DNA of 64,000 nucleotides. It comes from Vulcanimicrobiota bacterium. GTDB taxonomy: Bacteria; Vulcanimicrobiota; Xenobia; Xenobiales; JADMJV01. Below are positions 10,173 to 25,991 of the stretch, in pieces. The notes below the pieces were generated by a model. The model ran no database searches and had not been told where the DNA came from. It was given only the letters and a program-made list of their open reading frames with translations. The stretch's first letter is position 1; the number at the start of each line of letters is the position of its first letter. The position numbers were made by a program, and so were the translations under genes. Location of the stretch: NCBI GenBank assembly GCA_017307785.1, contig JAFKGI010000012.1, forward strand, positions 1 through 64,000. Direction: 5' to 3'.

Positions 10173-10195
10173 CTTTTAAAAGCTCCTTCGGGGTC

Positions 10196-12958
10196 CTAAG
10201 TTGGTACGGCCATTTTGAAGGCTTGCTCGATGAGCGAAGCCTGTTCGATTTTGTGACTTGCGCCCGAACCCGTGGCCGGACTGGCCGATTCGGGGCGAGA
10301 AATCTGCATAAAGGGATAACGGTCGTAGAGACGATCGTCGAAGCGGCAGTGCAGGAAGGGCAGAGCTCCCATATTGGCCGGTTCTTCTTGCACCCAGATG
10401 GCGGCCGTCTCCTTGGGGAAGACCGAGAGGGCGGCCTTGAGGGACCGATCCGGGAAGGGATAGAGTTGCTCCACGCGCACGATGGCCACGTCCTTGCGGT
10501 TGTGGGCCTTGCGATAAGCGTCCAGCTCATAGAAGAGCTTGCCGCTGCACAGCAACACGCGCTGAACCTTGCTCGAGGGTCCGGCTCCGACATCCGGCAA
10601 CACCCGCTGGAAGCTGCCTTCGGCCATCTCCTTCAGCGGGGTCACGCACTCCGGGTGGCGCAACAGGCTTTTGGGCGACATCACCACCAGCGGTTTGCGC
10701 AACGGGCGCAGAACCTGACGGCGCAGACAGTGGAACAGCTGACCGGGAGTGGTCAGGTTCACGATCTGGATGTTGTCCTCGGCCGCCAGGCTAAGGAAGC
10801 GTTCGAGACGAGCCGAGCTGTGCTCCGGTCCCTGGCCTTCGAAGCCGTGGGGCAAAAGCATCACCAGTCCGTTCAAGCGCGACCACTTGTCTTCGCTGGA
10901 GACGATGAACTGGTCGATGATCACCTGAGCCACGTTGACGAAGTCGCCAAACTGGGCTTCCCAAAGCGTAAGACACTCGGGACGGTCCAGCGACAATCCG
11001 TATTCGAAGGCGAGCACGGCCACCTCGGAAAGCGGGCTATCCCAAACCTGGTAACGAGCCTGTTCCGGGCTTAAATTGTTGAGCGGAATGTACTGCTCAC
11101 CGGTTTCGTAATCGTGGAAGATGGCGTGGCGGTGACTGAAGGTACCGCGGCCCACATCCTGACCGGAAAGACGCACGGGGAAGCCCTGCACGATCAAGCT
11201 GGCATAAGCCAGCAGTTCGGCGGCTCCCCAGTCCAGCGGCCTTTTGCCGGCCGCCATGTCTTTGCGCACTTCCAGGACCATTTTTTGCAGCTTGGGATTG
11301 GTCGTGAAACCCTCGGGAGCTTCGGTCAGCTTGACCAGCAGCGAGGCCAGTTTCTCGGGGTCGACTTCGGTGGCCACTTCCGGGGTGTCCTTGTCCAGGC
11401 CACCACGATAGCCGCCCTGGGTCGACAACTGCTTGTAGTCGTAATCCTTGGCGCGGGCCTTGGCCAGCTCGGCTTCAAGATACTCGCGGCGCTTGGCGGC
11501 GATATCCTCGACTTCGCTGCGTCCCAGAGCCGGCTGAGGCACCTTCATCAGACTTTCCACATAGCGCTCGCGCACCGAGGGCATCTGCGCGATCTGCTTG
11601 TACATGAGCGGCTGCGTGTAGGTGGGGTCATCGCCCTCGTTGTGGCCGCGGCGGCGGTAGCACCACATGTCGACCACCACGTCTTTGTTGAACTTCTTGC
11701 GGTATTCCATGGCCAGTCGAATGGCCTGGGCTACTGCCTCGGGATGCTCACCGTTGACGTGGATGATGGGAATCTGCAGCATTTTGGCCACGTCGGTCGG
11801 ATAGGTTCCGGAGCGTGCCTGCTTGGGCGAGGTGGTAAAACCGACCTGGTTGTTGACGATGATGTGGATGGTCCCGCCCACCGAGTAGCCGGCGATCTCG
11901 CTCATGTTGAGCATTTCCTGGACCACGCCCTGACCCGCGAAGGCGGCGTCGCCGTGAATGACCAGGCCCATCACGCGCTGGTGAGCACCCTGGCCCAGCT
12001 TCTCCTGACGAGCGCGCACGCGGCCGAGCACCACCGGTCCCACGAACTCGAGGTGAGAGGGGTTGAAGCACAGAGCCAGGTCAATCTTTTTGCCGGTGGA
12101 GGTGGTCCAGACGCTGGTGTAACCCAGATGGTATTTGACGTCGCCACGGCCGAAGTGCAGCTCGGGGTTGGTGTCGTCAAATTCCCGGAAAATTTGGCCG
12201 GGGTCTTTCTGCATGATGTTGGCCATCACGTTGAGACGACCGCGATGGGCCATACCGATGACGATGTCCTCGATGCCGAATTCGCCGGCGTCTTCGAGAG
12301 CCAGGTCGAGCAAGGGAATCAAGCTCTCGGCACCTTCCAGGCCGAAGCGCTTGGCGCCCACGTATTTTTTGGCGATGAACTCTTCGAACATCTCGGCGTC
12401 GGTCAGCCGGGTCAGAATACGAATCTGCTCGGCGTGACTGAGAGAACGGACGTTCTGGGTGGTTTCCATGGTCTGCTGGAGCCAGAACTTGGGCTCCGGG
12501 TCGTCGATATGCATATACTGCACGCCCACCGCGCGGCAGTAGGTGTTCTGCAGCACCTGCAGGATGTGCTGCAGGGTCACCGCCTCTTTCATCCCCAGGG
12601 ACAGCGCCCAGAAGCGGGTCTGCAGGTCGGCCTCGGTCAGTCCGTAATGGTCGAGCTGCAGCTCCGGGAAGGGAGCGGGCTCGCTGCCCAGCGGGTCGAG
12701 CCAGGCGGTGCGGTGACCGCGCACGCGATAGGCACGGATCAGCTGGTCAACGCGCTCTTGCTTGAAGGCGTCGCCTTCTTTGCTGACGGGTGGATTGAAG
12801 ATGGTGCTGGGTTCGTAGCTCGGACCCAGGGCCAGCCGCTGCCCGTTGATGCCTTCCTTTTCGAAATAGCTGCGCCAGGCCGGGTCGACGGCGGCCGGGT
12901 TGCGCTGGTATTCCTTGAGGACGTCTTCGACGAAGTCGAGATTATCCGCGTTAATCAT
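10196..12958 (-). CDS. sucA: 2-oxoglutarate dehydrogenase E1 component
   Basis: ~920 aa ThDP enzyme with strong full-length E1o similarity (MINADNLDFVEDVLKEYQRNP... N-terminus). Start set to the ATG at 12958, with AGGAG upstream. The track ORF extends 28 codons further. Confidence 0.9.
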   Translation of the reverse strand: MINADNLDFVEDVLKEYQRNPAAVDPAWRSYFEKEGINGQRLALGPSYEPSTIFNPPVSKEGDAFKQERVDQLIRAYRVRGHRTAWLDPLGSEPAPFPELQLDHYGLTEADLQTRFWALSLGMKEAVTLQHILQVLQNTYCRAVGVQYMHIDDPEPKFWLQQTMETTQNVRSLSHAEQIRILTRLTDAEMFEEFIAKKYVGAKRFGLEGAESLIPLLDLALEDAGEFGIEDIVIGMAHRGRLNVMANIMQKDPGQIFREFDDTNPELHFGRGDVKYHLGYTSVWTTSTGKKIDLALCFNPSHLEFVGPVVLGRVRARQEKLGQGAHQRVMGLVIHGDAAFAGQGVVQEMLNMSEIAGYSVGGTIHIIVNNQVGFTTSPKQARSGTYPTDVAKMLQIPIIHVNGEHPEAVAQAIRLAMEYRKKFNKDVVVDMWCYRRRGHNEGDDPTYTQPLMYKQIAQMPSVRERYVESLMKVPQPALGRSEVEDIAAKRREYLEAELAKARAKDYDYKQLSTQGGYRGGLDKDTPEVATEVDPEKLASLLVKLTEAPEGFTTNPKLQKMVLEVRKDMAAGKRPLDWGAAELLAYASLIVQGFPVRLSGQDVGRGTFSHRHAIFHDYETGEQYIPLNNLSPEQARYQVWDSPLSEVAVLAFEYGLSLDRPECLTLWEAQFGDFVNVAQVIIDQFIVSSEDKWSRLNGLVMLLPHGFEGQGPEHSSARLERFLSLAAEDNIQIVNLTTPGQLFHCLRRQVLRPLRKPLVVMSPKSLLRHPECVTPLKEMAEGSFQRVLPDVGAGPSSKVQRVLLCSGKLFYELDAYRKAHNRKDVAIVRVEQLYPFPDRSLKAALSVFPKETAAIWVQEEPANMGALPFLHCRFDDRLYDRYPFMQISRPESASPATGSGASHKIEQASLIEQAFKMAVPT

Positions 12959-12968
12959 TGAGCCACTC

Positions 12969-14324
12969 CTAGGATTTGACCGGGTCCCGCAGCAGCACGA
13001 ATTCTTCGGCGGCGGTGGGATGAACGGCCAGGGTTCGATCAAAGTCTTGCTTGCTCGCCCCGCAAGTAAGGGCTACGGCCAGAGCCTGAATGATTTCCGG
13101 AGCGTCCGACCCCACCATGTGGCAGCCCAGAACCAGCTGGTTGGAGCGACGCACCACCAGCTTCATCATCACTTTTTCCGGCTTGTCCGGCAGCGTGTAT
13201 TTCATCGGCCGAAAACTGGTGCGGTAAACGTCGATGTCGCCAGGATTGCTCTCTTCGGCCTGCTCCTGGGTGAGGCCCACCGTTCCCACAGCCGGCTGCG
13301 TAAAGACGGCCGTCGGAACGTGGTGAGGACGAAAGTCCGCGTTCGGATCCTGAAAAAGTCGGGCGGCCAGCGCGCGTCCTTGCGCGATGGCGTAGGGAGT
13401 GAGCTGCACCCCGCCCACGCAGTCGCCTACGGCGAAAATACTCTCGACGCTGGTGCGGCAATGCTCGTCGGTGAGCACCTCGCCCTTTTCGCCCAGGTTG
13501 ACGCCGACTTCCTGAAGACCCAGGCCTTCGGTGTTGGGCACGCGACCGGTGGCGGCCACGAAGATCTCGGACTTCCACGAGCCCTGATCGGTGTGGACTT
13601 CGATCTGGTCACCGGTCTGCGTGAGCTTTTCCAGGCTGGCTCCCGTAACAAAACGGATGCCACGGCTCTCCATCTGCTCTTTCAGGACTTTGCGCACGTC
13701 GCCGTCCATCTCGGGCAGAGGCAGGTCACTGCGGAACATGACGGTCACTTCGGACCCAAGGCCGGCGAAGATGCCGGCGAATTCCAGGCCGATGTAGCCG
13801 CTGCCCATCAAGGTGACGGACTTGGGAAGCTGCTTGAGATGAAACAGATCGTCGGAAGTGAGGGCCAGTTCTTTGCCCGGTTTGTCCGGCACCCAGGACT
13901 TGCCGCCCACGGCGATGGCCAGATATTTGCCGCTGACTTTCTTCTCCCCCACCTGAACGGTGTGAGCGTCGAGCACGCGGGCGCTGCCTTCGAAGCGAGC
14001 CACTTCAGAGCCGTCCAGCAGCTTGCGGTAGACGCCGTTGAGTCGGTCCAGCTCTTTGTCTTTGTTGGCCATCAGCTTCGTCCAGTCGAAGTCGGGAGCG
14101 GCCGATTCAAAGCCATAGCCGGGAAGCAGGGCCAGTTCGGAGCGGAGCGAGCTGGCGTAAACCATCAGCTTTTTGGGCACACAGCCGCGATGCACGCAGG
14201 TGCCGCCGTACTCGGACTGCTCGCAAATGGCGACTTTCGCGCCATAGAGCGCCGCACGCCGGGCCAGTCCCACTCCCCCAGAACCGGCTCCAATCACCAC
14301 CAGATCGTAGTCATATTGAGCCAT
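12969..14324 (-). CDS. gor: Glutathione-disulfide reductase
   Basis: 451 aa. MAQYDYDLVVIGAGSGG...GGTCVHRGCVPKKLM and C-terminal AVHPTAAEEFV are close to the E. coli Gor signature (GGTCVNVGCVPKK / AIHPTAAEEFV). Ends 10 nt upstream of sucA with an AGGAG in the spacer, so it is probably co-transcribed. Confidence 0.8.
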   Translation of the reverse strand: MAQYDYDLVVIGAGSGGVGLARRAALYGAKVAICEQSEYGGTCVHRGCVPKKLMVYASSLRSELALLPGYGFESAAPDFDWTKLMANKDKELDRLNGVYRKLLDGSEVARFEGSARVLDAHTVQVGEKKVSGKYLAIAVGGKSWVPDKPGKELALTSDDLFHLKQLPKSVTLMGSGYIGLEFAGIFAGLGSEVTVMFRSDLPLPEMDGDVRKVLKEQMESRGIRFVTGASLEKLTQTGDQIEVHTDQGSWKSEIFVAATGRVPNTEGLGLQEVGVNLGEKGEVLTDEHCRTSVESIFAVGDCVGGVQLTPYAIAQGRALAARLFQDPNADFRPHHVPTAVFTQPAVGTVGLTQEQAEESNPGDIDVYRTSFRPMKYTLPDKPEKVMMKLVVRRSNQLVLGCHMVGSDAPEIIQALAVALTCGASKQDFDRTLAVHPTAAEEFVLLRDPVKS

Positions 14325-14408
14325 AAAAATCCCCTTTGCGCCCCGCCAAGCGAGTCCTGCCCCCTATTTAGAAGGGTGCGCGCCGACACGACGCGTAGGC
14401 CTGAGCTT

Positions 14409-15233
14409 ATGAATGAACGATGGTGGGCGCGCACGATGCGCTTTCTACGCTATCCCGTCTTTCGCCATATTCTCGGGGGCGTAGTTTTTTTCTGTGTCTA
14501 TGGTTGGCTGAGCATGCGCTACGAAATCCTGATCCTCGGCGAGGATCTGGAATTCCCGGCCAGCGTGAACACGCTGCTGGGCGTTTCGCTGTCGGTGCTG
14601 ATCGTTTTCCGCACCAACGGCAGCTACGACCGCTGGTGGGAAGGCCGTAAGCTCTGGGGCCTTCTGGTCAACCGCTCGCGTTCTCTGGCGGCGGTGGTGT
14701 GGAGCGCGCAATGTCTGCCCCTGGAGGAACGGCGCCGCTTCCTGGACACGCTGGGCGAGTTTGCCTACAAGTTGCGCGATCACTTGCGAGGACCGTGGCC
14801 GGCGCCGGACAATGTCCCCCAGCGCTTGCTCAACACTCTGAGCCAACAACTGGGCCGCTGGGATCACCAGGGCCTGGTTCCCACCCATCTTTTTCTGGCC
14901 ATCGAGCGCAACATGAATGAGTTTTACGACATTCACGGCGCCTGCGAACGCATTCGTGGAACCCCGCTGCCGCTCAGCCACCGGGCCATCGTGCCCCAGG
15001 GCATTTTCATCTACCTGCTGGCCCTACCCTGGGGCCTGCCCCACGGACCGGTGTCGATCACCATCATCGGGGTGGTCGCCTACTTCCTGATCAGCCTGGA
15101 AATGATCGCCGAGGAAATCGAAGAGCCCTTCGGTCAGGACCCCGACGACCTGCCCCTGACCCGCACCTGCGTCAACATCAACGCCGGCCTGCAACGCCAA
15201 CTCGAACTCCCGGGCGAACTGGAACCGGCTTAA
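14409..15233 (+). CDS. Bestrophin-like / UPF0187 (YneE) family anion channel homolog
   Basis: 274 aa. SYDRWWEGRKLWG and IAEEIEEPFGQDPDDLPL match the family's conserved motifs, and four hydrophobic segments are present. Only the C-terminal part of track ORF 12900..15233 is real; its first 1.5 kb is antisense to gor. Confidence 0.7.
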   Translation: MNERWWARTMRFLRYPVFRHILGGVVFFCVYGWLSMRYEILILGEDLEFPASVNTLLGVSLSVLIVFRTNGSYDRWWEGRKLWGLLVNRSRSLAAVVWSAQCLPLEERRRFLDTLGEFAYKLRDHLRGPWPAPDNVPQRLLNTLSQQLGRWDHQGLVPTHLFLAIERNMNEFYDIHGACERIRGTPLPLSHRAIVPQGIFIYLLALPWGLPHGPVSITIIGVVAYFLISLEMIAEEIEEPFGQDPDDLPLTRTCVNINAGLQRQLELPGELEPA

Positions 15234-15403
15234 CTGCCTTCCTCCAACCCTCGTCCCGAAGGGGGAGGCGGGAAGAAGGGGAGCGGGAGAGAGCAGTGTC
15301 TGTTATTCCCTTATAAGAATTTTTGGCACTGGTTCGATTTGCCGCGACCGCTCTCTCCGACTTCCCCTCTTGCCACCTTCCCCTTCTAGGAAAGCAAGCG
15401 CGG

Positions 15404-18097
15404 TTAGAGGCGGATGCCGACGGGGAGGGCTTCGCCGAGGAGGGCGGCGGCTTCTTGTTGGGCGCCGACCTGGCCGTCGAGGCTGGCCAGGTGGTTTTGG
15501 AGGCCTTCTTTTTCCAGGCGGTTGCGCACGCGCTCGACCTGATCCTCGGGGAAGTCCCGTTTGATGTCATCGGTTTTCCGCATCATGGCGGACAGGGCCC
15601 AGCCCACGGTTTCCTTCTCGCTCCACTTGGAGTCGAGGATCTTGCTGATCCAGGGCCAGACGGCGTCGGGGGGGACGACCCATTGAGGTCCGGCGCCGAG
15701 CAAATTGCGGGTGCCGATACGGGCGATGCGCCAGAGGTCGTCGCGAGTGCCCTGGAACTTCTTCATAATGATTTCTCCCAGCAGCACCTTGTCGGCCACC
15801 GGGATCTGCGAGAGGGACACGGCCAGACGCAGCAACTCGTTGTCCTCGGCGATGCTGCGCTGGTGCGGCACGCGGGTTTTCCAGTGCTTACGCCCCGGGA
15901 TCATCACGGCCGCCAGCTGGGTCCAAAGCTGCTCTTGACGAGCCACACTCATGCCGGCGGCCAGGCGGCGCAGCGTTACCCACAACTCCATGCGAACCGG
16001 CTCGAGCTTGGGGAACTGCAGCCAGGAATCGAGCAGAGCCGAGGTCTTCTCTACGCGCCAGGCGTCGAGCTTGGAGCCGGTGCCGGGACGCAGGCAGTAA
16101 CCGACGCCGTTGAGCCAGCTCTGCTCATACTCGGGCTCCACGCGACGGCGCTGATGCACGTCCACGAAGCCATCCCAGAGAGCGCGTAGCAGGGCCACCG
16201 ACCAGAGTTGGCGACCCAGCCCGAAGTGCTGCTCCAGATTGGCCAACAGGCTGCGCGGGCGCACGCCCGAGCCCAGTCCCTTGGGCTTGCGCAGAAAGGC
16301 CTCGGCAATGGTGTCCTTGGCCTGCTTGACGACTTCCGGAGGAAATTCCGGGCCGCCTTCCAGCACCACATCGCCGCGCAGCGGGAACTCAAGCTGAAAG
16401 CGGCGCTTGCCCTCGAGCATGCGGCAAGCGATCGAGAGCGTTCCGATCTCGGTGACCTCGCCGGAGAGCAACACCGGCACTTCGGTCACCTTCAGGTCGG
16501 GAGCGCGCACCACCGTTTCCATGGCCGGCAAAACTTGAAACTCGGACTCTTCGCTGCCCGCAGCCGCGATATCCACCAGCGCTCCGGGCTGGTCTTCGGG
16601 TCGGTTGGAGCTGCTGAAGATGGGAAAGCGCACCGGGCGCTCCAGGGTGAGCTGCAAGATGGGCTCGGGCAAGTCCACGCGCGAGCCGGCCTCGAGGTTA
16701 CGCGGAACCACGCACAGGGCCTGGGTCGACTCTCCGTCGCTGCTCAGCTGCAGATAGTAGCTGCGGGCGATACCGCCGCCGATGCGCTTGCCGCCGCTAC
16801 GCTTGAGGTGGCCGTAGTAGGCGGCTCCACGGGCCACCGAGAGGTCGGACTCGGGATTGATCAATTCCTCGACCGGACCACCACGCCAGGACTCCAGAAT
16901 CTGTAGCAGGCGCTGACGAATGGCCAGAGCTCGGCAGGCGCCACCATTGAAGAGAATTTTATTGGGGACATTGTCTTTGCGACCATGGCGGCGCAGGAAG
17001 CTGCTCAGATGGCGCGGCACGGCCGGATCACTGGCGTAGGGCAGTCCCCACTCTTTGAAGCCGAGCCGGCGTTCGGCCTGCAACGGCTCGTCGATAGGCA
17101 CGGCCGGGAAGAAGCCGTCCAGCACCAGCTTCTCCACTTCCTCGCGGGAAAGGTCGGCCTGCAGCGTGCCGGCCACCAGCTTGGAGCCGGAGCCGGGCAC
17201 GGTCACGGTCACCTTCTCGGGGGGCTCGTCGCCGAGCAGCAGTTCCTTGGCGCGGCGGCACTCGTTGCGTAACACCCCCCACTGCAGAATGTCCAATTTG
17301 GCGCCCAGACGCGGTTCCACCAGGTAGGCCAGGGCGATGTCCAGGTTATCGCCGCCCAGCATCAAGTGCTCGCCCACGGCTACGCGACGCAGGCCTTTGT
17401 CGGCATACTCAATCAAGGTAAAGTCGCTGGTGCCGCCGCCGATGTCGCAGACCAGAATCTGATCGCCCTGCTGAAGATTGACCGGGCTCTCCACGCTCAA
17501 GCCGTTGGCGTAGAGGTAATGATAGAAGGCCGCCTGCGGTTCTTCCAGCAGCGTGATCTTGTCGAGACCGGCCTGGCGCGCGGCCGACACGGTGAGCTCT
17601 CGAGCCAGCTCGTCAAACGAAGCCGGAACCGTCAACACGATTTCGCACTCATCCAACGGGTGGTCCGGGTACTGATGGCGGAAAGCCTCGCGCAAATGCT
17701 CGAGATAACGGCGCGAAGCCTCGACTGGAGAAACGCGGGGCGCGTCGGGCGCGCCGTCCCAGGGCAGCAACGGCTGACTGGGGTCGGCCTGACGATGGGC
17801 CAGCCAGGACTTGGCCGAAACGACCACGCGACCGGGCACGCGGGAGCCCTGCACGCGGGCGAACTCGCCCACCATAAAGTCGCGCTTTTCGTCCCAGGGC
17901 AGAGCCAGCGAACCTTCCGGCAGTTCGTGGGCGCCCGGCAGGTAGAGGAATGAAGGAAGCAGCGACTGTTCGCGGACTTCCGATTCCGAGACCCGCTGCG
18001 TCAGCTTGAGTGTCTCAATCTCACCACGATCTCCGATGATTCGCGCCAGGGCCGTGTTGGAGGTGCCCAGGTCGATGCCGACCAGCCAGTTGCTCAT
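15404..18097 (-). CDS. Hsp70-fold ATPase paralog (897 aa) with ~400-aa non-DnaK C-terminal extension
   Basis: N-terminal actin/Hsp70 NBD motifs GIDLGTSNTA (phosphate-1), CDIGGGTSDF (phosphate-2) and GGDNLD. No canonical DnaK substrate-binding domain or EEVD tail. The long C-terminal region is predicted helical. Its start overlaps the stop of the upstream paralog by 4 nt. Confidence 0.75.
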   Translation of the reverse strand: MSNWLVGIDLGTSNTALARIIGDRGEIETLKLTQRVSESEVREQSLLPSFLYLPGAHELPEGSLALPWDEKRDFMVGEFARVQGSRVPGRVVVSAKSWLAHRQADPSQPLLPWDGAPDAPRVSPVEASRRYLEHLREAFRHQYPDHPLDECEIVLTVPASFDELARELTVSAARQAGLDKITLLEEPQAAFYHYLYANGLSVESPVNLQQGDQILVCDIGGGTSDFTLIEYADKGLRRVAVGEHLMLGGDNLDIALAYLVEPRLGAKLDILQWGVLRNECRRAKELLLGDEPPEKVTVTVPGSGSKLVAGTLQADLSREEVEKLVLDGFFPAVPIDEPLQAERRLGFKEWGLPYASDPAVPRHLSSFLRRHGRKDNVPNKILFNGGACRALAIRQRLLQILESWRGGPVEELINPESDLSVARGAAYYGHLKRSGGKRIGGGIARSYYLQLSSDGESTQALCVVPRNLEAGSRVDLPEPILQLTLERPVRFPIFSSSNRPEDQPGALVDIAAAGSEESEFQVLPAMETVVRAPDLKVTEVPVLLSGEVTEIGTLSIACRMLEGKRRFQLEFPLRGDVVLEGGPEFPPEVVKQAKDTIAEAFLRKPKGLGSGVRPRSLLANLEQHFGLGRQLWSVALLRALWDGFVDVHQRRRVEPEYEQSWLNGVGYCLRPGTGSKLDAWRVEKTSALLDSWLQFPKLEPVRMELWVTLRRLAAGMSVARQEQLWTQLAAVMIPGRKHWKTRVPHQRSIAEDNELLRLAVSLSQIPVADKVLLGEIIMKKFQGTRDDLWRIARIGTRNLLGAGPQWVVPPDAVWPWISKILDSKWSEKETVGWALSAMMRKTDDIKRDFPEDQVERVRNRLEKEGLQNHLASLDGQVGAQQEAAALLGEALPVGIRL

Positions 18098-19836
18098 TTC
18101 TTTTCTCGCACTTCAAATTCAAGTTTCCAGCGGCCCGTGCCGCCTCTTTGCTGACACCAGAGCTCCAGTGTCCCCACCTCGGTGGCCACCGTCTGCAGTT
18201 GCACGGGAACCACCGGTTGATCGACCTCGGAGCTGCGCAGAATGCTGGTGACGGTGGCGATCTGCTCGATTTCGTCCTCATCTTCCCAGTCGTCCACTGT
18301 CTGACCGGGCTGGTCTTCGACGCGCTGGTTGCTGGTCATGAAGGGAAACTCCACCAACTCACCCAGCACCAGCCCCAACTCCAGGCCCGGCAGGTCCACC
18401 GTGGCGCCCTCTTCCATCCCCTGGGGAGCCACGCAAATGGCCTTGGTCGGGGGAGCGAACCCGGGAACGGCCGGACGGGCGACCTCCACTCCGATGTAAT
18501 AGGAACGGGGCAGGCCGCCGCGGATGCGGATGCCGCCCTGCAGGCGAGCTCGACCGTAGGCGGCGGCACCGCGGGCCACGGCCAGATCGCAATCCTGGTT
18601 CGGCAGCACCTTGACCGGCTCGTCCAACCAACTGTTCAGGACTTCCAGCACTCGCTGCTGGACGCCCGGAGATTTGCACACGCCGCCGTTGAAGAGAATG
18701 GCGGTGGGCTTGATAAACTCGCCGCCCTGGTGGAGAAAGCGGGCCAGATGCTTGGTGATGGCCGGATCCGACTCGTAGGGCAGTCCCAGTTCGGTCAGAC
18801 CGAAGCGGCGCTGGCGCTGGGCGAAGTCCTGAGCGCCGACCTTCGGGAAGAATCCGTCCAGGATGACCTTCTCGACTTCGCTGCGGTTGATCTCGGTCGA
18901 AGTGGAGCCAAGCAACATCTTGGCGCCGCGACCCGGAATGGTCAGGGGGGAAAGTTCCAGCGGGTCGGTGGCCAGCATCTTCTCTTTGGCGTTACGGCAC
19001 AGGTGAGTCAACACCTGAAACTGCCAGGAGTCGATTTTCTGTCCTTCGGCGCGCAAGCGCGCCTGCACGGTGGCGGCCAGACTCAGATCCATGTTGTCGC
19101 CGCCCAGCAGCAAGTGGTCGCCCACGGCCACGCGGGTCAAGCTCAGTTGGCCCTCTTCTTCGTCCACTCGAATGAGGGTGAAGTCGGAGGTGCCGCCGCC
19201 CAGGTCGCAGACCAGAATGTGATCGCCCAGCTTGACCGCTTCGCGCCAGGAATCCCCCATCTGCTCCAGCCAGGCGTAGAAGGCGGCCTGCGGCTCTTCC
19301 AGCAAGGTCAGATTTTCCAACCCGGCTCGCTGAGCCGCCTCCACCGTGAGCTCGCGAGCGACGGCGTCGAAGCTGGCGGGCACGGTCAGAAAGACGGAAT
19401 GTTCATCCAGGCTGCCCCCCAGCCGCGAAAAGCGCCAGGAGTCGGCCAGATGGCGAAGATAGCGGGTGGTCACCTCGACCGGCGACAGCTTGGGGACTTC
19501 TTCCGGCGACTTCCAGGGCAGCAACGGCTGTTGTCGGTCCACTTGAGCGTTGCACAGCCAGCTCTTGGCCGAGACGATCAGTCGGTCGGGCACCCGTGAG
19601 CCTTCGTCGCGAGCCATGGTTCCCACGGCGAACTCGGCCACTTCATCCCAGGGCAGCGACAGGCTTCCCAGCGCGAACTCATGCTGCGAGGGCAGGTAGA
19701 GATAGGAGGGCAAGGTGGGGCGAGCTTCGATCTCTTCGGGAGCCACCAGTTGGGGGATGGCGAAGTCGTGGACGCTTTCTTCTCCCACGTAAGAGAGGGC
19801 GCAGTTGGTGGTCCCCAGGTCAATTCCAACGATCAC
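18094..19836 (-). CDS. Hsp70-fold ATPase paralog (580 aa)
   Basis: GIDLGTTNCA, CDLGGGTSDF and GGDNMD NBD motifs, followed by a ~200-aa C-terminal domain. Overlaps the DUF2760 gene upstream and the 897-aa paralog downstream by 4 nt each. Confidence 0.75.
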   Translation of the reverse strand: MIVGIDLGTTNCALSYVGEESVHDFAIPQLVAPEEIEARPTLPSYLYLPSQHEFALGSLSLPWDEVAEFAVGTMARDEGSRVPDRLIVSAKSWLCNAQVDRQQPLLPWKSPEEVPKLSPVEVTTRYLRHLADSWRFSRLGGSLDEHSVFLTVPASFDAVARELTVEAAQRAGLENLTLLEEPQAAFYAWLEQMGDSWREAVKLGDHILVCDLGGGTSDFTLIRVDEEEGQLSLTRVAVGDHLLLGGDNMDLSLAATVQARLRAEGQKIDSWQFQVLTHLCRNAKEKMLATDPLELSPLTIPGRGAKMLLGSTSTEINRSEVEKVILDGFFPKVGAQDFAQRQRRFGLTELGLPYESDPAITKHLARFLHQGGEFIKPTAILFNGGVCKSPGVQQRVLEVLNSWLDEPVKVLPNQDCDLAVARGAAAYGRARLQGGIRIRGGLPRSYYIGVEVARPAVPGFAPPTKAICVAPQGMEEGATVDLPGLELGLVLGELVEFPFMTSNQRVEDQPGQTVDDWEDEDEIEQIATVTSILRSSEVDQPVVPVQLQTVATEVGTLELWCQQRGGTGRWKLEFEVREKK

Positions 19837-20312
19837 AACTCCACCTCCGCGGGCACCAAAATATCTAAAGTCTTGAGTTCAGGCAATTTGGCCGAAGCCA
19901 GTTTCCAGCCGTGATGGCGCAACGTCCCCTGAAAGGGAGGGTCGCCCTGCACCTTACCGACCAGGCGAATCTCGGCGGGACTGAAGCCTTCAGGGACCTG
20001 CACTTTGTCGCCGTCCTTTTCCGGTAGAACCGGTTCCAGCACCAGATACTGCTGCAGCACCTTGGCACAGCCGATGTGGACTCCTCGCGCCACCCCACCG
20101 ACTTGAGCATCGGGAAAGCCCTCCAGACTCTCGCTGAGAAAGTCCAGCAAGCGACCTTCCTTTTGAAGCGCGGCCAGCAGTTGAGCGGCCGTGGCCGGAG
20201 GCGGCCCGGGCGGAAGAGCTTTCATCTCCTTGAGCAAGTCATCCACTTTCTTGGAGAACTGGCGGTTGAAGAGAGCCTTGAAAAAAGCTCGAAAGGCGGT
20301 TGTCAATCCCAT
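19833..20312 (-). CDS. DUF2760-like small protein, first gene of the Hsp70-paralog operon
   Basis: 159 aa, MGLTTAFRAFFKALF... The family assignment is from memory: DUF2760 is a small protein family typically encoded next to non-canonical Hsp70 genes. Gene order and 4-nt coupling support a real gene. Confidence 0.5.
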   Translation of the reverse strand: MGLTTAFRAFFKALFNRQFSKKVDDLLKEMKALPPGPPPATAAQLLAALQKEGRLLDFLSESLEGFPDAQVGGVARGVHIGCAKVLQQYLVLEPVLPEKDGDKVQVPEGFSPAEIRLVGKVQGDPPFQGTLRHHGWKLASAKLPELKTLDILVPAEVEL

Positions 20313-20360
20313 CGAAAGGCGCCTACGACGCCTCCTGGGAGCCCCCTGCAGGATTCGATC

Positions 20361-21446
20361 ATGGACGCAAGAACCGTGGCCGGCGTGAATGGTTGGCGAG
20401 GGAAATTGGCCAGACTGGTGCTGGTCCTCTTAGTTTCTTGGGGTTTGCTCGAAGGGCTGCTGCGCTTGACCGCGCCCTACTTGGGAACGGACGTCTGCAA
20501 CGAGCTGGTTCGCAGCTACTCCAACGAGCCCGGCGGCATCTACTTTTTCGAGCCCAAAAGCAAGCTCAACTTCCCCTACCCCAACGACCACAAGCGAGTG
20601 GCCGTCAACGGTCGCATCTGGCACCACGACACCGATCAGCGCGCCTTCCGCAACCCGCCCGATACCCCCCACGAGATTGTCGTCTTTGGCGATTCCTTTC
20701 TCTACGGCCACGGTATCGAGGAGCCGCAGACCGCGGTGGCCATCTTGCGCAACCAGTTCAAGTGGAAGATCTACAATATGGCTCGCCAGGGAGACAGCAT
20801 CTGGCAGCAGTACATCCTTTTCCGCCTCTGGTTTGACGAACTCAAGCCCAAGCACATCATCCTTTGCCCGTTCGGTAACGATTTTTGGGACATCGAAGGA
20901 CCGCGCACCCCGGAAGATCAGATGGATCCTCCCGAGTTCAAGCCGGGCTTTATCGAGACCGTACGGACCAATATCAACGACCCCGAGATCCGCAAACCTT
21001 ACGGCAACTGGTGGACTTCGAGCTATTGCTATCGGCTGGTTTCTTTCGCGCGCCGCCGCCTGGAGCATCGCAACGACTTCCATCCCGAAACCGATGAAAG
21101 TCGCAAGGTCGCCGATTTCGAACGCGAGGGCCACTACTACACGGCGCTCTTCGAGGATATGCTCAAGCGTGCCCGGGCCGCCGGCTGCACGGTGGACATG
21201 GTCTACATCGACACGGCCACCGACTCGGACTACTGGCGAGATCAACAAATCAAGATGGGCGTTTTCTTCAAAGCTCTGTGCGAGCGCAATAAAGTCCCTT
21301 ATTATTCGACTCGCGATCTTCTCAAAGGACACGACGAACTGGTGCTGCCCAACGACGGCCACCTCAACCCCAAGGGCAACCAGGTCCTGGCCGAGTTTAT
21401 CGCTCGCGAGTGTCCCAAAACCTGGACTAAAGATGGAAGTTACTAA
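20361..21446 (+). CDS. SGNH/GDSL-type hydrolase with N-terminal membrane anchor
   Basis: Start set to the internal ATG at 20361. The track start at 20076 overlaps the DUF2760 gene on the other strand. Block I VVFGDSFLYG, block III CPFGNDFW and block V NDGHLNPKG (DxxH) are present. Confidence 0.55.
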   Translation: MDARTVAGVNGWRGKLARLVLVLLVSWGLLEGLLRLTAPYLGTDVCNELVRSYSNEPGGIYFFEPKSKLNFPYPNDHKRVAVNGRIWHHDTDQRAFRNPPDTPHEIVVFGDSFLYGHGIEEPQTAVAILRNQFKWKIYNMARQGDSIWQQYILFRLWFDELKPKHIILCPFGNDFWDIEGPRTPEDQMDPPEFKPGFIETVRTNINDPEIRKPYGNWWTSSYCYRLVSFARRRLEHRNDFHPETDESRKVADFEREGHYYTALFEDMLKRARAAGCTVDMVYIDTATDSDYWRDQQIKMGVFFKALCERNKVPYYSTRDLLKGHDELVLPNDGHLNPKGNQVLAEFIARECPKTWTKDGSY

Positions 21447-21460
21447 GGGGGAATCCTAAG

Positions 21461-22588
21461 ATGGGCTACAACGCCAGCCTCACCGCCAAGTGTTGGAAAT
21501 TGCATACCTGCGTCAACTGCAGCACGGTCTTCCGCTACCTGATGACCCGTAAGGTCACCGCCCAGGGCAACACCGAAGCTCAGGCGCGAACCAATCTCGG
21601 CCAGGCCGTGGTCAAGTCCCTTACCAACGGAGTGGACCAGCATTCCTGTCCGACCTGCGGCCTGCACCCTCCGGAAATGGTGACGTCCGCGCGAAACGCA
21701 CGCTTCGGTTGCCTGAACGGGCTGGTGGTGGCCGTCTGTTTTGGCCTGATGATCGCCCTGGCCATCGAGTATCCGGTGTCCACCATCACCCTCTGGGGCG
21801 GAGTGCTGCTGGCGCTGTTGGCAGCCAACTACGCCTGGATGGCCCTCAAGAATCCCAACAACCATGTGCCGAGCAATCTCGAGCGAGCCCAGAAATCAGT
21901 CCAAGAGCAAAAACTGTTTGTGGAAGAATCTCCTCAAAATCCTCCGGTGCGACGCAGTGATCTGGCCGAGTTGACCCACGGTCGCAACCCGTTGGCGCTG
22001 GCGCTACTGGGCTCGGGTCTGCTTTTGATGGCGCTACCGGAAGTGACGCGTTCCGTCAGCGGCTGGCAGGAAAACCCCAAGTTTTTCCCGGCCGTGGTCG
22101 GCCCCGGAGACAACCCGACCTACTATTTTGACCGCAAGATTCACAGCCTCAAGGGCTATTGGCGAGCCACCAACATCAGCGCCGAAATGGATGGCAAGAA
22201 GCTGACGGCGACCGCCAAAGACAACAACTGGGGGAGCAGTATCTCGGTCAAATCCAGCGAGCAGAACACTCAGGAAACGCTGTGGCTCAAAGTTGCCGTC
22301 CCGGACGATGGGGCGCTGGCCAAGAAAACCGAAAAGCTCGACTTGAAAGTTCAGTACGTGGCGCCGGTCATGTCAGGCTCCAGCAACTTCCGCGAAGAAG
22401 ACGGAGAGGTAGCCGAAAAGCCCGAACTCCACCTGGCCACGGTCGGGGCCGGCAGGCTTTACGGCAAGCTCGCCTGGCTGGGAGTGCTGGGAGGACCAGG
22501 CCTGATGTTTCTGGCCGGCTGGTTGTTCATCCGTCACGCCAAGTCGCTCAAGGGCAATCCCCATCAGGCTCTAGAAGCGGAGGACTAA
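21461..22588 (+). CDS. Hypothetical membrane protein with N-terminal zinc-ribbon (CxxC...CxxC)
   Basis: 375 aa. Cys pairs TCVNC and CPTCG sit in the first 70 residues, followed by 2–3 TM helices, a soluble domain and a C-terminal TM. I recognise no family. Confidence 0.45.
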   Translation: MGYNASLTAKCWKLHTCVNCSTVFRYLMTRKVTAQGNTEAQARTNLGQAVVKSLTNGVDQHSCPTCGLHPPEMVTSARNARFGCLNGLVVAVCFGLMIALAIEYPVSTITLWGGVLLALLAANYAWMALKNPNNHVPSNLERAQKSVQEQKLFVEESPQNPPVRRSDLAELTHGRNPLALALLGSGLLLMALPEVTRSVSGWQENPKFFPAVVGPGDNPTYYFDRKIHSLKGYWRATNISAEMDGKKLTATAKDNNWGSSISVKSSEQNTQETLWLKVAVPDDGALAKKTEKLDLKVQYVAPVMSGSSNFREEDGEVAEKPELHLATVGAGRLYGKLAWLGVLGGPGLMFLAGWLFIRHAKSLKGNPHQALEAED

Positions 22589-22642
22589 AACCCGACCCCC
22601 GCGAAACGCCGGGAGCATACTCTCAAATTAAAGGATTTCTTT

Positions 22643-23206
22643 ATGGCCTTCGTTTCATCCAATGACCTGTCCACCGGCATCACCGTCGACATCGACGGCG
22701 ACCTGCTTCAGGTAATCGAATTTCAGCATGTCAAGCCCGGCAAAGGCTCGCCCTTCGTGCGCGCCAAGTTCAAAAACATCAAGACCGGCTACACCAAAGA
22801 ATTCACCTTCCGTGGCAACGAAAAGATGACGCGCGCCCACATCGAGCGCCGTCCGGCCTCGTTCCTGTACGCTCAGGACGACGAATATTCGTTCATGGAT
22901 TCGGAGAGCTTCGACCAGCACGCCGTCACCGGCAAAGAAGTCGGTGACCAGCGCAAGTGGCTGAAAGACGGCATGGAAGTCATGCTGGTGCTCTACGATG
23001 ACCGCATCATCGGCATCGAATTGCCCAACTTCGTGGAGCTGGTGGTCATCGAGACCGAGCCCGGCTTCAAGGGTGACACCGCCACCGGCGCCACCAAGCC
23101 CGCCACCGTGGAAGGCGGCGCGGTCGTCTACGTGCCTCTCTTTGTGGAGCAGGGCACCAAGCTGATGATCGACACCCGCACCGGCGAGTACATGAAGCGC
23201 GTCTAG
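22643..23206 (+). CDS. efp: Elongation factor P
   Basis: 187 aa. Full-length EF-P similarity, including the KPGKGSPFVRAKFKN loop with the modifiable Lys. Confidence 0.9.
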   Translation: MAFVSSNDLSTGITVDIDGDLLQVIEFQHVKPGKGSPFVRAKFKNIKTGYTKEFTFRGNEKMTRAHIERRPASFLYAQDDEYSFMDSESFDQHAVTGKEVGDQRKWLKDGMEVMLVLYDDRIIGIELPNFVELVVIETEPGFKGDTATGATKPATVEGGAVVYVPLFVEQGTKLMIDTRTGEYMKRV

Positions 23207-23209
23207 CAC

Positions 23210-24196
23210 GTGTCCATCCTGATCGTCGGGGCAGGGGCCATCGGCCAGTGGCTGGGGGCCCTTTTGCATGAAAGGGCTGGCGAGACGGTCACCATGTTGG
23301 CCCGTCCCCGTCAACTGGAGGCCCTGGCTTCCTTGCCCATGCGATCGGTGGCTCAGCTGGAGCCGGGGACCGCTTTCGACGACGTCATCTTCACGGTCAA
23401 GGCTTTTCAGGTGGAGGAAGCGGCCGCTCAGCTGGCCGCTTCCGGCCTGCGGCTGAAGCGGATCTGGGGCTTCCAGAACGGGATGGGCAGCGACGAAAAG
23501 CTGGCGGCCCACTTTCCCGGTCTCTGGTTCGGGGCTATGACCACCACCATTCCGGTGTACATCGAGAATGGCAAACCCCAACCGGGGCCGCGCGGCGGTC
23601 TGGCCTGGGCCACCAAACACGAGCGCTTCCTGGCCCCGCCCTGGCTGGATCGCATGGGACTGCCCTGCACCGCAGTGCCCCGGGTCGACTCCCTGAAATG
23701 CTCCAAGCTGCTGCTCAACGTGACCTGCAACTCCAGTTGCGCTCTGCTGGACATGCTGCCCTCGGAAGTGGTTGCCCACGGCCCCATGTTCAACTTTGAG
23801 CTGGCCTGCTTGCGCGAATTCCTGGCCGTGGTGCGGTCCAATCGCATCCCCCTGGCCGACCTGCCCAACTACAAGGTGACCCAGATGGCCGGGCTGGCCT
23901 ATCTGCCCAACTTTGCCATTCGCTCGTTGCTCGGCTCCAAGATCACGAAGGCGCGCGGTCAAAAGCCGCCCTCGTTGCTGGTCGATCTGCGGGCCGGACG
24001 CCCTCAGAGCGAGGTAGAGGTGCTGAATGGAGCCGTGGTGGAGCTGGGGAAACGCAGCGGCATCCCCACTCCCGGCAATGCCTGGTTGTTGGAAAACCTG
24101 CGCGCGGTGGTGGCCGACAACTCTCTGTGGGCCGGCTATCGCGGTCAAATTGACAAGGTGGCCCAGCAGGCCCTATCGGCCCTCAAGACAAAATAG
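23210..24196 (+). CDS. Ketopantoate reductase (PanE/ApbA) family oxidoreductase
   Basis: GTG start. N-terminal Rossmann ILIVGAGAIGQWLGALL, plus KCSKLLLN in the C-terminal domain (the family's Lys/Asn motif). Confidence 0.6.
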   Translation: MSILIVGAGAIGQWLGALLHERAGETVTMLARPRQLEALASLPMRSVAQLEPGTAFDDVIFTVKAFQVEEAAAQLAASGLRLKRIWGFQNGMGSDEKLAAHFPGLWFGAMTTTIPVYIENGKPQPGPRGGLAWATKHERFLAPPWLDRMGLPCTAVPRVDSLKCSKLLLNVTCNSSCALLDMLPSEVVAHGPMFNFELACLREFLAVVRSNRIPLADLPNYKVTQMAGLAYLPNFAIRSLLGSKITKARGQKPPSLLVDLRAGRPQSEVEVLNGAVVELGKRSGIPTPGNAWLLENLRAVVADNSLWAGYRGQIDKVAQQALSALKTK

Positions 24197-24201
24197 GCCG
24201 G

Positions 24202-25362
24202 GTGAGTAGTGAGCCAGAACAAGCGCCCTTAACCCAAAAGATCGACGAAGGATTCGGGTCCTTCGAAGGGGATCAAACCGCCGTCCGCCGCCCGCGACCG
24301 GAAGACGACATCGTTCCCGGCAAAGGTCGCCGCCTGCGACCCGAGGACGACAACGTGGGCCCCAAAGCCAAGTATGAGTCCAAGGCCCTGGTGCTGGACG
24401 TGGCCGATAAGCCGCCCTGTTGGGACGGGCAAATCCTGGACGTGCGCAACCTCACCAAGGCTTACAACAAGCAGCTGGCCGTCAACGAAATGACCTTCCA
24501 GCTCTATCCCGGAGACATCCTGGGATTTCTCGGACCCAACGGTGCCGGTAAGACCACCACCATCCGCATGCTGGCCACCGTGCTCGCCCCCGACGGCGGT
24601 TCGGCCTACGTGGGCGGCCACTCGCTCAAAGAGGTGGAAGAGATTCGCGCGCGAGTCGGCTACATGCCGGACTTTCTGGGCGTCTACGACGACCTGCTGG
24701 TCAAGGAATACCTGGAGTTCTTCGCGCGCGCTTATAAAATCAGCGCAACCCATCGAGATTTCGTGATCCGGGAGGCTTTGGAGATCACCCGTCTGACCAG
24801 CCTGGCCGACAACCCGGTGGACGGACTGTCGCGCGGTCAGAAGCAGCGTTTGGGCCTGGCTCGCCTGCTGATGCACGACCCGGTGCTGCTACTGCTCGAC
24901 GAACCGGCCGCCGGTCTCGACCCCCGCGCCCGCGTGGACCTGCGCGACATCCTGCGCAGCCTGCAGCAGCGCGGCAAGGCCATGATCGTCTCCAGCCACA
25001 TCCTCAGTGACCTCTCCGACTTCTGCAACAAGGTGGGTATCGTCGTCAACGGCAAGCTCATCCTGTTTGACGAAACCAAGCGCCTGATCGATCGCATGCG
25101 CGACCGTCGCCGTTTGCGCACCCGCTTGCTGCACGGTGGGGAAGACGCCATGAAGTTCCTCAACAATCGCCCCGAGGTACACAACGTCCAGTTCCAGGGC
25201 GAAGATCTGCTGTTTGAAGTGGTGGGCTTCGATCAAGAAGTGGCCGATCTCCACCGGGCTTTGTTTGAAGCCAACTTCTCCATCATCACCCTGTCCGAGG
25301 AGCCCTGGGATTTGCAGGATATCTATCTGCAGGCCACCGAGGGGATCGTAACTAGAGACTGA
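24202..25362 (+). CDS. ABC transporter ATP-binding protein with ~85-aa N-terminal extension
   Basis: Walker A GPNGAGKTT, signature LSRGQKQRLGLA and Walker B LLLLDEPAAGLD are all present. No permease gene is adjacent. Confidence 0.8.
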   Translation: MSSEPEQAPLTQKIDEGFGSFEGDQTAVRRPRPEDDIVPGKGRRLRPEDDNVGPKAKYESKALVLDVADKPPCWDGQILDVRNLTKAYNKQLAVNEMTFQLYPGDILGFLGPNGAGKTTTIRMLATVLAPDGGSAYVGGHSLKEVEEIRARVGYMPDFLGVYDDLLVKEYLEFFARAYKISATHRDFVIREALEITRLTSLADNPVDGLSRGQKQRLGLARLLMHDPVLLLLDEPAAGLDPRARVDLRDILRSLQQRGKAMIVSSHILSDLSDFCNKVGIVVNGKLILFDETKRLIDRMRDRRRLRTRLLHGGEDAMKFLNNRPEVHNVQFQGEDLLFEVVGFDQEVADLHRALFEANFSIITLSEEPWDLQDIYLQATEGIVTRD

Positions 25363-25991
25363 TGCTGTCCCAACTGCTCGATATCTATGAACAACTCTGG
25401 ATGCGCGACGACTCGCCCTGGGCCGCTCACGAAGCCGACAGCCTCGGGCGGATGCGCCAGTTCCTGGCCAGCTCTCCGGAGGTATTTCAACGTTCCCATA
25501 TTCCCGGCCACTTCACCGGATCGGCGCTGGTTTGCGATCCGCATCTGACCCGGGTGGCCCTGACCCATCACACCAAGCTCGACAAGTGGCTACAGTTTGG
25601 CGGCCACGCCGACGGCGATGACAATCTGGCGCGGGTGGCGCTGCGCGAGGCCGAAGAAGAGAGCGGACTGCCCAGGCTCAACTATCTGGATTTTGAAGAG
25701 GCGCTCGGCTGCCCGCATCATCCGGTTCCCTTCGATCTGGACATCCACGAAATTCCGGCCCGAGGCTCCGAGCCCGCCCACCTCCACTACGACGTTCGTT
25801 TCGTGGTGGTCAGCCAGACTCAGGCGCTCCAGATGAACGAGGAATCCCAACAACTCGGCTGGTTCAGCCTGGCGGAAGCTCGAGAAAAGACTCAGGAAGA
25901 GTCGATGCTACGCCAGTTTCAGAAGCTGGAGCTGCTGCATCGCACGCTGGTCAAACAACCCACAGAAATATCCACTTCTCCTCAACGGTAA
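25362..25991 (+). CDS. NUDIX hydrolase
   Basis: Nudix box GGHADGDDNLARVALREAEEESGL (GX5EX7REUXEEXGU). The start overlaps the ABC gene stop (ATGA). Confidence 0.75.
   Translation: MLSQLLDIYEQLWMRDDSPWAAHEADSLGRMRQFLASSPEVFQRSHIPGHFTGSALVCDPHLTRVALTHHTKLDKWLQFGGHADGDDNLARVALREAEEESGLPRLNYLDFEEALGCPHHPVPFDLDIHEIPARGSEPAHLHYDVRFVVVSQTQALQMNEESQQLGWFSLAEAREKTQEESMLRQFQKLELLHRTLVKQPTEISTSPQR

Follow-up and report, generated by a model that had tools for sequence, protein, structure and literature searches.

Three overlapping genes for a DUF2760 protein and two Hsp70-like proteins

We analysed a three-gene operon on the minus strand of a 64,000-nucleotide (nt) stretch of DNA from a Vulcanimicrobiota bacterium (contig JAFKGI010000012.1, positions 1 to 64,000; this whole stretch is referred to as the window). 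The operon, at positions 15404-20312, comprises three consecutive open reading frames (ORFs) in the order DUF2760 (D), short Hsp70 paralog (S) and long Hsp70 paralog (L). Their positions and their lengths of 159, 580 and 897 amino acids (aa) are those given in an initial annotation, made from the sequence alone, and the ORF list agrees. The genes and their junctions are as follows:

19833..20312, minus strand: DUF2760 gene (D), ATG start, 159 aa; MBN9416207.1; Pfam PF10816, E 1e-43
18094..19836, minus strand: short Hsp70 paralog S, GTG start, 580 aa; MBN9416206.1; nucleotide-binding domain (NBD) and a domain resembling the beta part of an Hsp70 substrate-binding domain (SBD-beta), without a lid
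15404..18097, minus strand: long Hsp70 paralog L, ATG start, 897 aa; MBN9416205.1
19833..19836, minus strand: 4-nt overlap GTGA between the TGA stop of DUF2760 and the GTG start of S; GGAGGTGGAG just upstream
18094..18097, minus strand: 4-nt overlap ATGA between the stop of S and the start of L

Each of the three translations is identical to a protein deposited for a Candidatus Eremiobacteraeota metagenome-assembled genome (MAG); these proteins are annotated as 'DUF2760 domain-containing protein' (D) and 'Hsp70 family protein' (both S and L). Because thousands of homologues exist, the three ORFs are genes and not chance reading frames. The identification of the 159-aa protein as DUF2760, proposed in the initial annotation, holds: the Pfam match scores 148.6 bits against a cut-off of 25 and covers model positions 4-124 of 124. 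The three genes had also been described as chained by 4-nt ATGA-type overlaps. Read from the sequence, the overlaps have this length at both junctions, and the S/L junction (...AAGAAATGAGCA) is a classical ATGA overlap, but the D/S junction (...GAGTTGTGATCG) reads GTGA, because S starts with GTG.

Neither a sigma-70-like promoter nor a convincing terminator was detected around the operon. The start of the DUF2760 gene is separated from a divergent gene for a GDSL-like hydrolase (start at 20361) by only 48 bp (20313-20360). Because this gap contains no detected sigma-70-like promoter, the promoters of the D-S-L operon and of the divergent gene must be unconventional, or located inside neighbouring genes.

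Domain architecture of the three proteins

S and L are paralogs by sequence, with 47% identity. Since S residues 2-577 align to L residues 5-574, L is, in terms of this alignment, S plus a C-terminal extension. The domains of the two proteins, as assigned from alignments and from a structural model of the C-terminal half of L, are:

18553..19836, minus strand: S NBD (~residues 1-428); Pfam HSP70 match at residues 2-323, motifs in 49-51 of 51 homologues, aligned with Escherichia coli DnaK
16808..18097, minus strand: L NBD (~residues 1-430); PDB profile matches to Hsp70 NBDs only, motifs in 80-81 of 81 homologues
18106..18531, minus strand: S putative beta-sandwich (~residues 436-577); aligned with L residues 441-574, fold evidence from the L model
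16376..16777, minus strand: L SBD-beta-like beta-sandwich (residues 441-574); AlphaFold2 strands and Foldseek matches, without a sequence-level signal
15440..16339, minus strand: L modelled C-terminal alpha-solenoid (residues 587-886); includes Pfam DUF3731 (residues 656-897)
15407..15427, minus strand: L C-terminal motif LPVGIRL; family consensus LPxGL(R/K)L, with L891, P892 and G894 invariant

Pfam HSP70 matches the N-terminal ~320 residues of each protein (S, E 8e-19, NBD half only; L, E 2e-15), and the match ends at model position 300 of 599. The motifs of the Hsp70 superfamily, namely phosphate-1 (DxGT), the catalytic Lys and Glu, phosphate-2 (DxGGGTxD) and adenosine, are present in 49-51 of the 51 S and 80-81 of the 81 L homologues compared. 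Across these sequences, which come from many phyla, the ATPase motifs DLGT, SAKSW, LLEEPQAA, DxGGGTxD, GGDNxD and NGG are near-invariant, and so are L residues D9, K96, E186, D218, G220-T223, D225 and GGDN. The motifs listed in the initial annotation are found as GIDLGTTN and GIDLGTSN, CDLGGGTSDF and CDIGGGTSDF, and GGDNMD and GGDNLD; the one correction is that L has DIGGG and not DLGGG. Both proteins align at these motifs to D8, K70, E171, D194, T199 and D201 of E. coli DnaK. Because the catalytic motifs are near-invariant and coincide with the catalytic positions of DnaK, both S and L should hydrolyse ATP.

The NBDs share ~25% identity with that of E. coli DnaK, and the view that both ATPases are highly divergent Hsp70s is borne out by NCBIfam scores of 58-86 bits compared with DnaK/HscA cut-offs of 620-823. 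The best scores are 85.9 bits for S and 77.8 bits for L, and the equivalog cut-off of canonical DnaK, HscA or HscC is not reached. As judged by sequence, both proteins belong outside these three families. In the alignment with DnaK, the N-terminal part of the NBD contains a family-specific insertion (LPSFLYLP...LPW) and a deletion. The hydrophobic interdomain linker, VLLLD in DnaK, is replaced by RIxGGxxRSYY. In DnaK, R167, N170 and T173 contact the J-domain; the equivalent positions are T, E and Q in the family motif LLEEPQ, of which EEPQ is near-invariant in the 51 S and 81 L sequences. The EEVD tail is absent from both ATPases, as had been annotated.

Residues 430-897 of L were modelled with AlphaFold2 from a 56-sequence alignment (mean predicted local distance difference test score, pLDDT, 86). 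In the model, residues 441-574 form a beta domain of nine strands, and the domain after it is entirely helical. In a Foldseek comparison of the model with the PDB, Hsp70 substrate-binding domains (SBDs) account for 46 of the top 50 matches, among them the DnaK C-terminus, the HscA SBD, the BiP SBD and the human Hsp70 SBD (probability 0.95-1.0, E 2e-3 to 1e-2, TM-score up to 0.51 with SBD-beta-only targets). By predicted fold, S and L each keep a sandwich of the Hsp70 SBD-beta type, with a putative role in peptide binding. A profile of the 150-residue beta region retrieved chance matches only, and no Hsp70, from the PDB sequences. According to the alignment with L, S ends 3 residues after the last strand; because the chain ends right after the sandwich, S lacks a helical lid. 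In the model of L, a HEAT/ARM solenoid follows the sandwich in the position of the lid. The initial annotation had denied both ATPases a DnaK-type SBD and lid: the absence of the helical lid stands, but the absence of an SBD does not agree with the Foldseek matches.

The C-terminal part of L (residues 656-897) matches Pfam PF12531 (DUF3731, 'DNA-K related protein') with 179.7 bits against a cut-off of 25 (E 1e-52). The match covers model positions 3-248 of 248 and lies C-terminal to the Hsp70 NBD. In the structural model this C-terminal domain is a HEAT/ARM (armadillo) solenoid that takes the place of the lid; searched against PDB sequences, the DUF3731 profile gave only chance ARM-like matches with E >= 0.2. 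The helical character of the domain had been recognised in the initial annotation, but its length had been put at ~400 aa, and the extension beyond S is ~320 aa (residues 575-897). The LPxGL(R/K)L motif is found 0-6 residues from the C-terminus in most of the 81 L homologues. In the model, a low-confidence linker precedes LPVGIRL, which forms a short strand or bridge, and this suggests that the motif docks onto the beta domain.

In a homology search, most matches to the DUF3731 profile were partial genes on short contigs. One candidate for a 'stand-alone' DUF3731 protein on a long contig was rejected, as it turned out to be a split or frameshifted L gene. At locus L084 (4457-7383), L is called as two ORFs with a 4-nt overlap, of 515 aa (HSP70) and 460 aa (DUF3731), which reflects either a gene that is truly split or a frameshift in this long-read MAG.

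The DUF2760 protein consists of two parts:

20226..20309, minus strand: Phe-rich N-terminal helices (residues 2-29, LAFRAFFxxLF); conserved in the alignment, AlphaFold2 helices at residues 2-15 and 17-29
19839..20192, minus strand: core domain (residues 41-158), ending with the conserved PAEVEL C-terminus

A profile search of 1.84 billion cluster representatives identified DUF2760 members in 2176 clusters. The top 150 are all 136-306 aa long and carry the domain at the extreme C-terminus, without fusions. AEVE[LIV] occurs within the last 13 residues in 239 of 270 DUF2760 homologues. A transmembrane-like N-terminal segment is present in 52 of the 270, either at the conserved helix or just upstream, and several of the 52 have an unmistakable transmembrane helix preceding the conserved LAFxxFF helix. 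The DUF2760 profile retrieved nothing from the PDB sequences, even at E <= 10; the fold is presumably novel.

Distribution, genomic context and the Myxococcus xanthus ortholog

We scanned one genome per species, for 185,579 species, with family-specific peptide patterns derived from a full-length L alignment, and obtained at least 598 confirmed species-level genome matches (of at least 600 stretches). For the best 80 of these at least 598, six-frame ORFs were searched with the three window proteins; 69 loci have enough upstream sequence to be informative, and the counts were corrected by inspection for over-extended ORFs. The D-S-L order on one strand is found in 46 of the 69 informative loci, in more than ten phyla, so the DUF2760-Hsp70-Hsp70 order of the window is kept across genomes. 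The best 80 loci include Eremiobacterota-like/UBP9 MAGs, a Selenomonadaceae MAG, Methylomirabilota, Binatia, Planctomycetota, Verrucomicrobiota, Lentisphaerae, Myxococcota, Desulfobacterota, Acidobacteriota, Chloroflexales, Fibrobacteres, Chromatiales and Burkholderiales (Burkholderia, Caballeronia, Paraburkholderia, Trinickia, Massilia, Janthinobacterium and Propionivibrio).

Intergenic distances range from -4 to more than 200 nt, so that 4-nt overlaps like those of the window do not characterise the family. In three proteins of 1499-1536 aa (P0029, P0031 and P0081, one of them annotated as Polyangiaceae), S and L are fused into a chain with two NBDs and one DUF3731. Gene fusions of this kind are classical evidence for a physical complex, here a predicted one between S and L. 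All-against-all clustering of the flanking ORFs of the best 80 loci did not reveal a fourth conserved gene. In the Selenomonadaceae MAG (L002, 7266-7921), a VapBC-like toxin-antitoxin pair (86 aa and a 132-aa PIN-like protein) is located between the DUF2760 and S genes.

Neither dnaJ, grpE nor another J-domain gene is present at positions 8982-25991 of the window, in agreement with the initial annotation, and none is conserved among the best 80 loci. McrB-like GTPase, DUF2357/McrC and HEPN genes are likewise absent from the neighbourhood in the window. The neighbours are housekeeping genes, encoding 2-oxoglutarate dehydrogenase E1 and E2, an E3-like flavoprotein, bestrophin, a GDSL-type hydrolase, EF-P, PanE, an ABC ATPase and a Nudix hydrolase. 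The 2-oxoglutarate dehydrogenase cluster (8982-14324, minus strand) contains E2 at 8982-10172, E1 at ~10196-12961 and an E3-like pyridine-nucleotide disulfide oxidoreductase at 12969-14324 (minus strand); the TTG start listed for E1, at 13042, probably extends this ORF too far, into the E3-like gene. Downstream of the gene for the GDSL-like hydrolase, a 375-aa ORF (21461-22588, plus strand) without a Pfam match has two N-terminal CxxC pairs and hydrophobic segments, and may encode a membrane protein.

L is encoded on 11 of 72,556 plasmids, mostly Burkholderia or Caballeronia chromids and megaplasmids. A complete D-S-L cassette (L083, 4387-9796) is carried by the 110-kb conjugative Bradyrhizobium barranii plasmid pCC829_3 (NZ_CP088103.1), where it lies between trb transfer genes and a topoisomerase gene, with a MarR-family regulator gene just upstream. 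A phage collection contained no DUF2760 homologue, and for L it gave generic Hsp70 NBD matches only. PADLOC-DB 2.0 returned no significant match; the best one (PDC-M61B, E 0.0028, 14 bits) falls in the NBD motif region of S. A single 90%-identity cluster contains L of M. xanthus, M. virescens, M. eversor, M. qinghaiensis and Pyxidicoccus fallax, a pattern that fits a core gene and not a fast-evolving defence gene.

DUF2760, DUF3731 and their Pfam accessions are not mentioned in the literature searched, and the initial view of the system as essentially uncharacterised is in keeping with this. A 2026 review describes bacterial DnaK derivatives as unexplored 'dark matter', some of which have been proposed to be Hsp110-like co-chaperones of DnaK (Goloubinoff, De Los Rios and Rebeaud, FEBS J; PMC13580251). 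One probable member of the L family has been deleted in a study of six hsp70 genes of M. xanthus, in which MXAN_5323 is of the cd10170 type and, with 925 aa, by far the longest (Pan et al., 2021; PMC8265645). The deletion mutant is viable, with normal growth, motility, predation and fruiting. Sporulation is reduced and recovery and survival after H2O2 are lowered, without heat, cold or osmotic phenotypes, and overexpression had no reported effect (PMC8265645). In the same study, an E. coli dnaK mutant is reported to be rescued only by the two canonical DnaKs and not by the other hsp70 genes tested, including MXAN_5323 (PMC8265645). MXAN_5323 is treated there as a lone 'cd10170 Hsp70', and the neighbouring DUF2760, the short Hsp70 and DUF3731 are not discussed.

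The L genes of Myxococcus (loci L054 and L066) encode 924-925 aa; at 90% identity they cluster with a DK1622 protein of 925 aa that is annotated 'heat shock protein 70 family protein'. From length, family and the shared 90% cluster, MXAN_5323 is almost certainly the L ortholog. The MXAN_5323 deletion primers have no match within 3 mismatches in loci L054 and L066; visual comparison suggests a resemblance between the junction primer and the ribosome-binding region ahead of L in L054, which lends weak support.

A proposed heterodimeric Hsp70 machine and its alternatives

We consider it reasonably probable that D-S-L is a self-contained, specialised heterodimeric machine of non-canonical Hsp70s, with DUF2760 as its cofactor and an accessory role in stress. 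The best reading of the cassette is that it is neither a defence system nor an ordinary DnaK. S and L would work as a 1:1 heterodimer, which would account for their occasional fusion into one chain, and their ATP cycles may be coupled NBD to NBD, by analogy with eukaryotic Hsp70-Hsp110. We hypothesize that the solenoid of L is either a platform for clients or adaptors, or an integral clamp for nucleotide exchange on the NBD of its partner. The clamp idea derives from the fold class: armadillo-type Hsp70 nucleotide-exchange factors, HspBP1/Fes1 and Sil1, are known in eukaryotes, and L shares with them an ARM/HEAT solenoid tied to an Hsp70 NBD, a likeness of fold class that we take as a lead. 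The difference is that the solenoid of L is fused to an Hsp70. The S-L pairing, together with the solenoid, would make GrpE, and probably DnaJ, unnecessary.

DUF2760 would be a dedicated cofactor, either an adaptor or an activator, and often membrane-bound. Some lineages carry a transmembrane helix instead of, or ahead of, its conserved hydrophobic N-terminal helix, so that DUF2760 probably positions the machine at the cytoplasmic membrane or brings a client to it. We speculate that the conserved tails, LPxGLRL of L and PAEVEL of D, are candidate ligands of the lidless SBD-beta clefts or of the solenoid. The role of the machine is probably accessory proteostasis or remodelling in oxidative stress and differentiation, and not bulk folding. 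A more far-reaching version of this proposal is an obligate heterodimer of active lidless Hsp70s that needs neither J-protein nor GrpE, with the HEAT/ARM domain as exchange or client platform and a membrane-tethered DUF2760 replacing DnaJ. Taken as a whole, we regard it as tentative and rather doubtful; if true, prokaryotes would have evolved, independently, an equivalent of Hsp70-Hsp110 combined with an armadillo-type exchange factor.

Several observations weigh against the proposed machine. L stands alone in 21 of the 69 informative loci, mostly in Planctomycetota and in two UBP9 MAGs, and the remaining informative loci comprise one S-L and one D-L arrangement. In Planctomycetota (L010-L019 and L025-L031), the three genes are mostly dispersed. 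One Planctomycetota MAG has a D-S pair 3 kb downstream of L, and in Schlesneria paludicola the DUF2760 gene is found alone (L082, 8001-8558), flanked by ABC transporter and ZIP transporter genes; from these two cases, the module in Planctomycetota is dispersed, not absent, and linkage is not universal. On a Binatia chromosome (OZ246888.1; L009, 9219-12850), DUF2760 is followed directly by L, with no S within 10 kb; the trio is complete at two further Binatia loci. The SBD-beta assignment is derived from one AlphaFold2 model and from Foldseek matches with E values of only 2e-3 to 1e-2. When the profile of the beta domain was compared with E. coli DnaK residues 380-560, HHalign gave a probability of 0.1%, and because the sequence profiles and HHalign are negative, the assignment rests on fold comparison. 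The hydrophobic moment of the N-terminal helix of DUF2760 in the window is modest (0.27), and the C-terminal tail of the protein, modelled with high confidence, may be no more than a part of its fold. MXAN_5323 was linked to L by length, family and the DK1622 90% cluster, and not by locus tag; its phenotypes are mild and common to other hsp70 deletions (PMC8265645).

The idea that the two ATPases are ordinary DnaK-, HscA- or HscC-type chaperones, adjacent by chance, draws on the Pfam HSP70 matches and on HscA and DnaK being the best NCBIfam models. S and L do resemble these proteins in an actin-type NBD with all catalytic residues, followed by a beta-sandwich of SBD-beta position and, in the model, fold. 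However, S and L score roughly ten times lower than the curated cut-offs, and only the N-terminal half of the Pfam model is matched. S and L differ from DnaK, HscA and HscC in lacking the VLLLD linker (replaced as described above), the lid, the J-contact residues and DnaJ/GrpE partner genes, in carrying the family-specific DUF3731, and in forming a paralogous pair with DUF2760; the M. xanthus homologue, moreover, is reported to be none of the genes able to complement E. coli dnaK (PMC8265645). The partial Pfam match, the NCBIfam scores and the alignment with DnaK refute this explanation, to which we give practically no weight, and the initial judgement that this is not a canonical chaperone cassette stands. 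A polymerising function of S and L as actin/MreB-like ATPases, in a cytoskeletal or membrane-remodelling filament anchored by DUF2760, is very improbable. Partial MreB_Mbl Pfam matches (24 and 31 bits) and the membrane anchors of some DUF2760 homologues point in this direction, but the MreB matches are confined to the actin-fold core common to both families (profile positions 71-185 of 327), where HSP70 matches more strongly, and both the Hsp70-specific catalytic Lys (equivalent to K70) and the predicted Hsp70-type SBD-beta domain are present.

One of the closest analogies to the proposed machine is with Hsp70-Hsp110 (Sse1/HSPA4), where two Hsp70 paralogs, one of them C-terminally enlarged, pair as we propose for S and L (see PMC13580251). 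The duplication is independent, though, the enlargement of L is a predicted HEAT/ARM solenoid and not an extended SBD and lid, and both S and L keep the catalytic motifs. S and/or L might instead be dedicated Hsp110-like exchange factors of the housekeeping DnaK and not a machine of their own, as proposed for bacterial DnaK derivatives in general (PMC13580251). The cassette contains no J-protein or GrpE of its own, and the M. xanthus deletion phenotypes overlap with those of other Hsp70 mutants, both of which suit such a role. We nevertheless find it unlikely: the adjacent and sometimes fused S and L genes indicate that the two proteins are each other's partners, they keep catalytic motifs and a substrate-domain-like sandwich whereas Hsp110 has largely lost substrate and J-protein functions, and the overexpression of MXAN_5323 had no reported effect. 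More improbable still is an anti-phage or conflict module that senses infection and triggers an effector, akin to CnuD of type III CoCoNuT, which has an Hsp70-like NBD/SBD and HEAT-like repeats, degenerate ATPase motifs and McrBC/HEPN partners (PMC11090510). L has the same domain order as CnuD by published description (PMC11090510), neighbourhoods vary among loci, one copy lies on the conjugative Bradyrhizobium plasmid, and one contains the inserted toxin-antitoxin pair. In contrast to CnuD, L has intact ATPase motifs, and the cassette lacks McrB-like GTPase, DUF2357/McrC, HEPN and coiled-coil partners; no such effector adjoins it as a conserved gene in the best 80 loci. The absence of a significant PADLOC match and of a defence-island setting, identity of at least 90% across Myxococcus species, the housekeeping neighbours, plasmid copies that are nearly all on chromids or megaplasmids, and the lack of phage copies also argue against defence.

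StkA-StkB-StkC of M. xanthus, considered as a candidate relative, likewise combines a non-canonical Hsp70 with two small proteins in a small operon. It was rejected as unrelated: its partners are the SCP2-like StkB and the PhaE-like StkC, and it has one Hsp70 only and neither DUF2760 nor DUF3731.

The cassette is not categorically new: its Pfam families are catalogued, its ATPases can be recognised as derived from Hsp70, and a deletion phenotype has been published for one ortholog. As a whole, the system of a lidless Hsp70 pair, a HEAT/ARM domain and a private DUF2760, without DnaJ and GrpE, is undescribed in the literature searched. Bacterial Hsp70 biology rests almost wholly on the DnaK-DnaJ-GrpE paradigm, and the cassette offers a concrete and tractable case of the 'dark matter' of DnaK derivatives (PMC13580251), present in the culturable and genetically amenable Myxococcus, Burkholderia, Paraburkholderia, Janthinobacterium and Massilia. 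Solving it would provide a function for two Pfam DUFs with thousands of members each, and would tell whether bacterial Hsp70 cycles run without J-proteins and GrpE.

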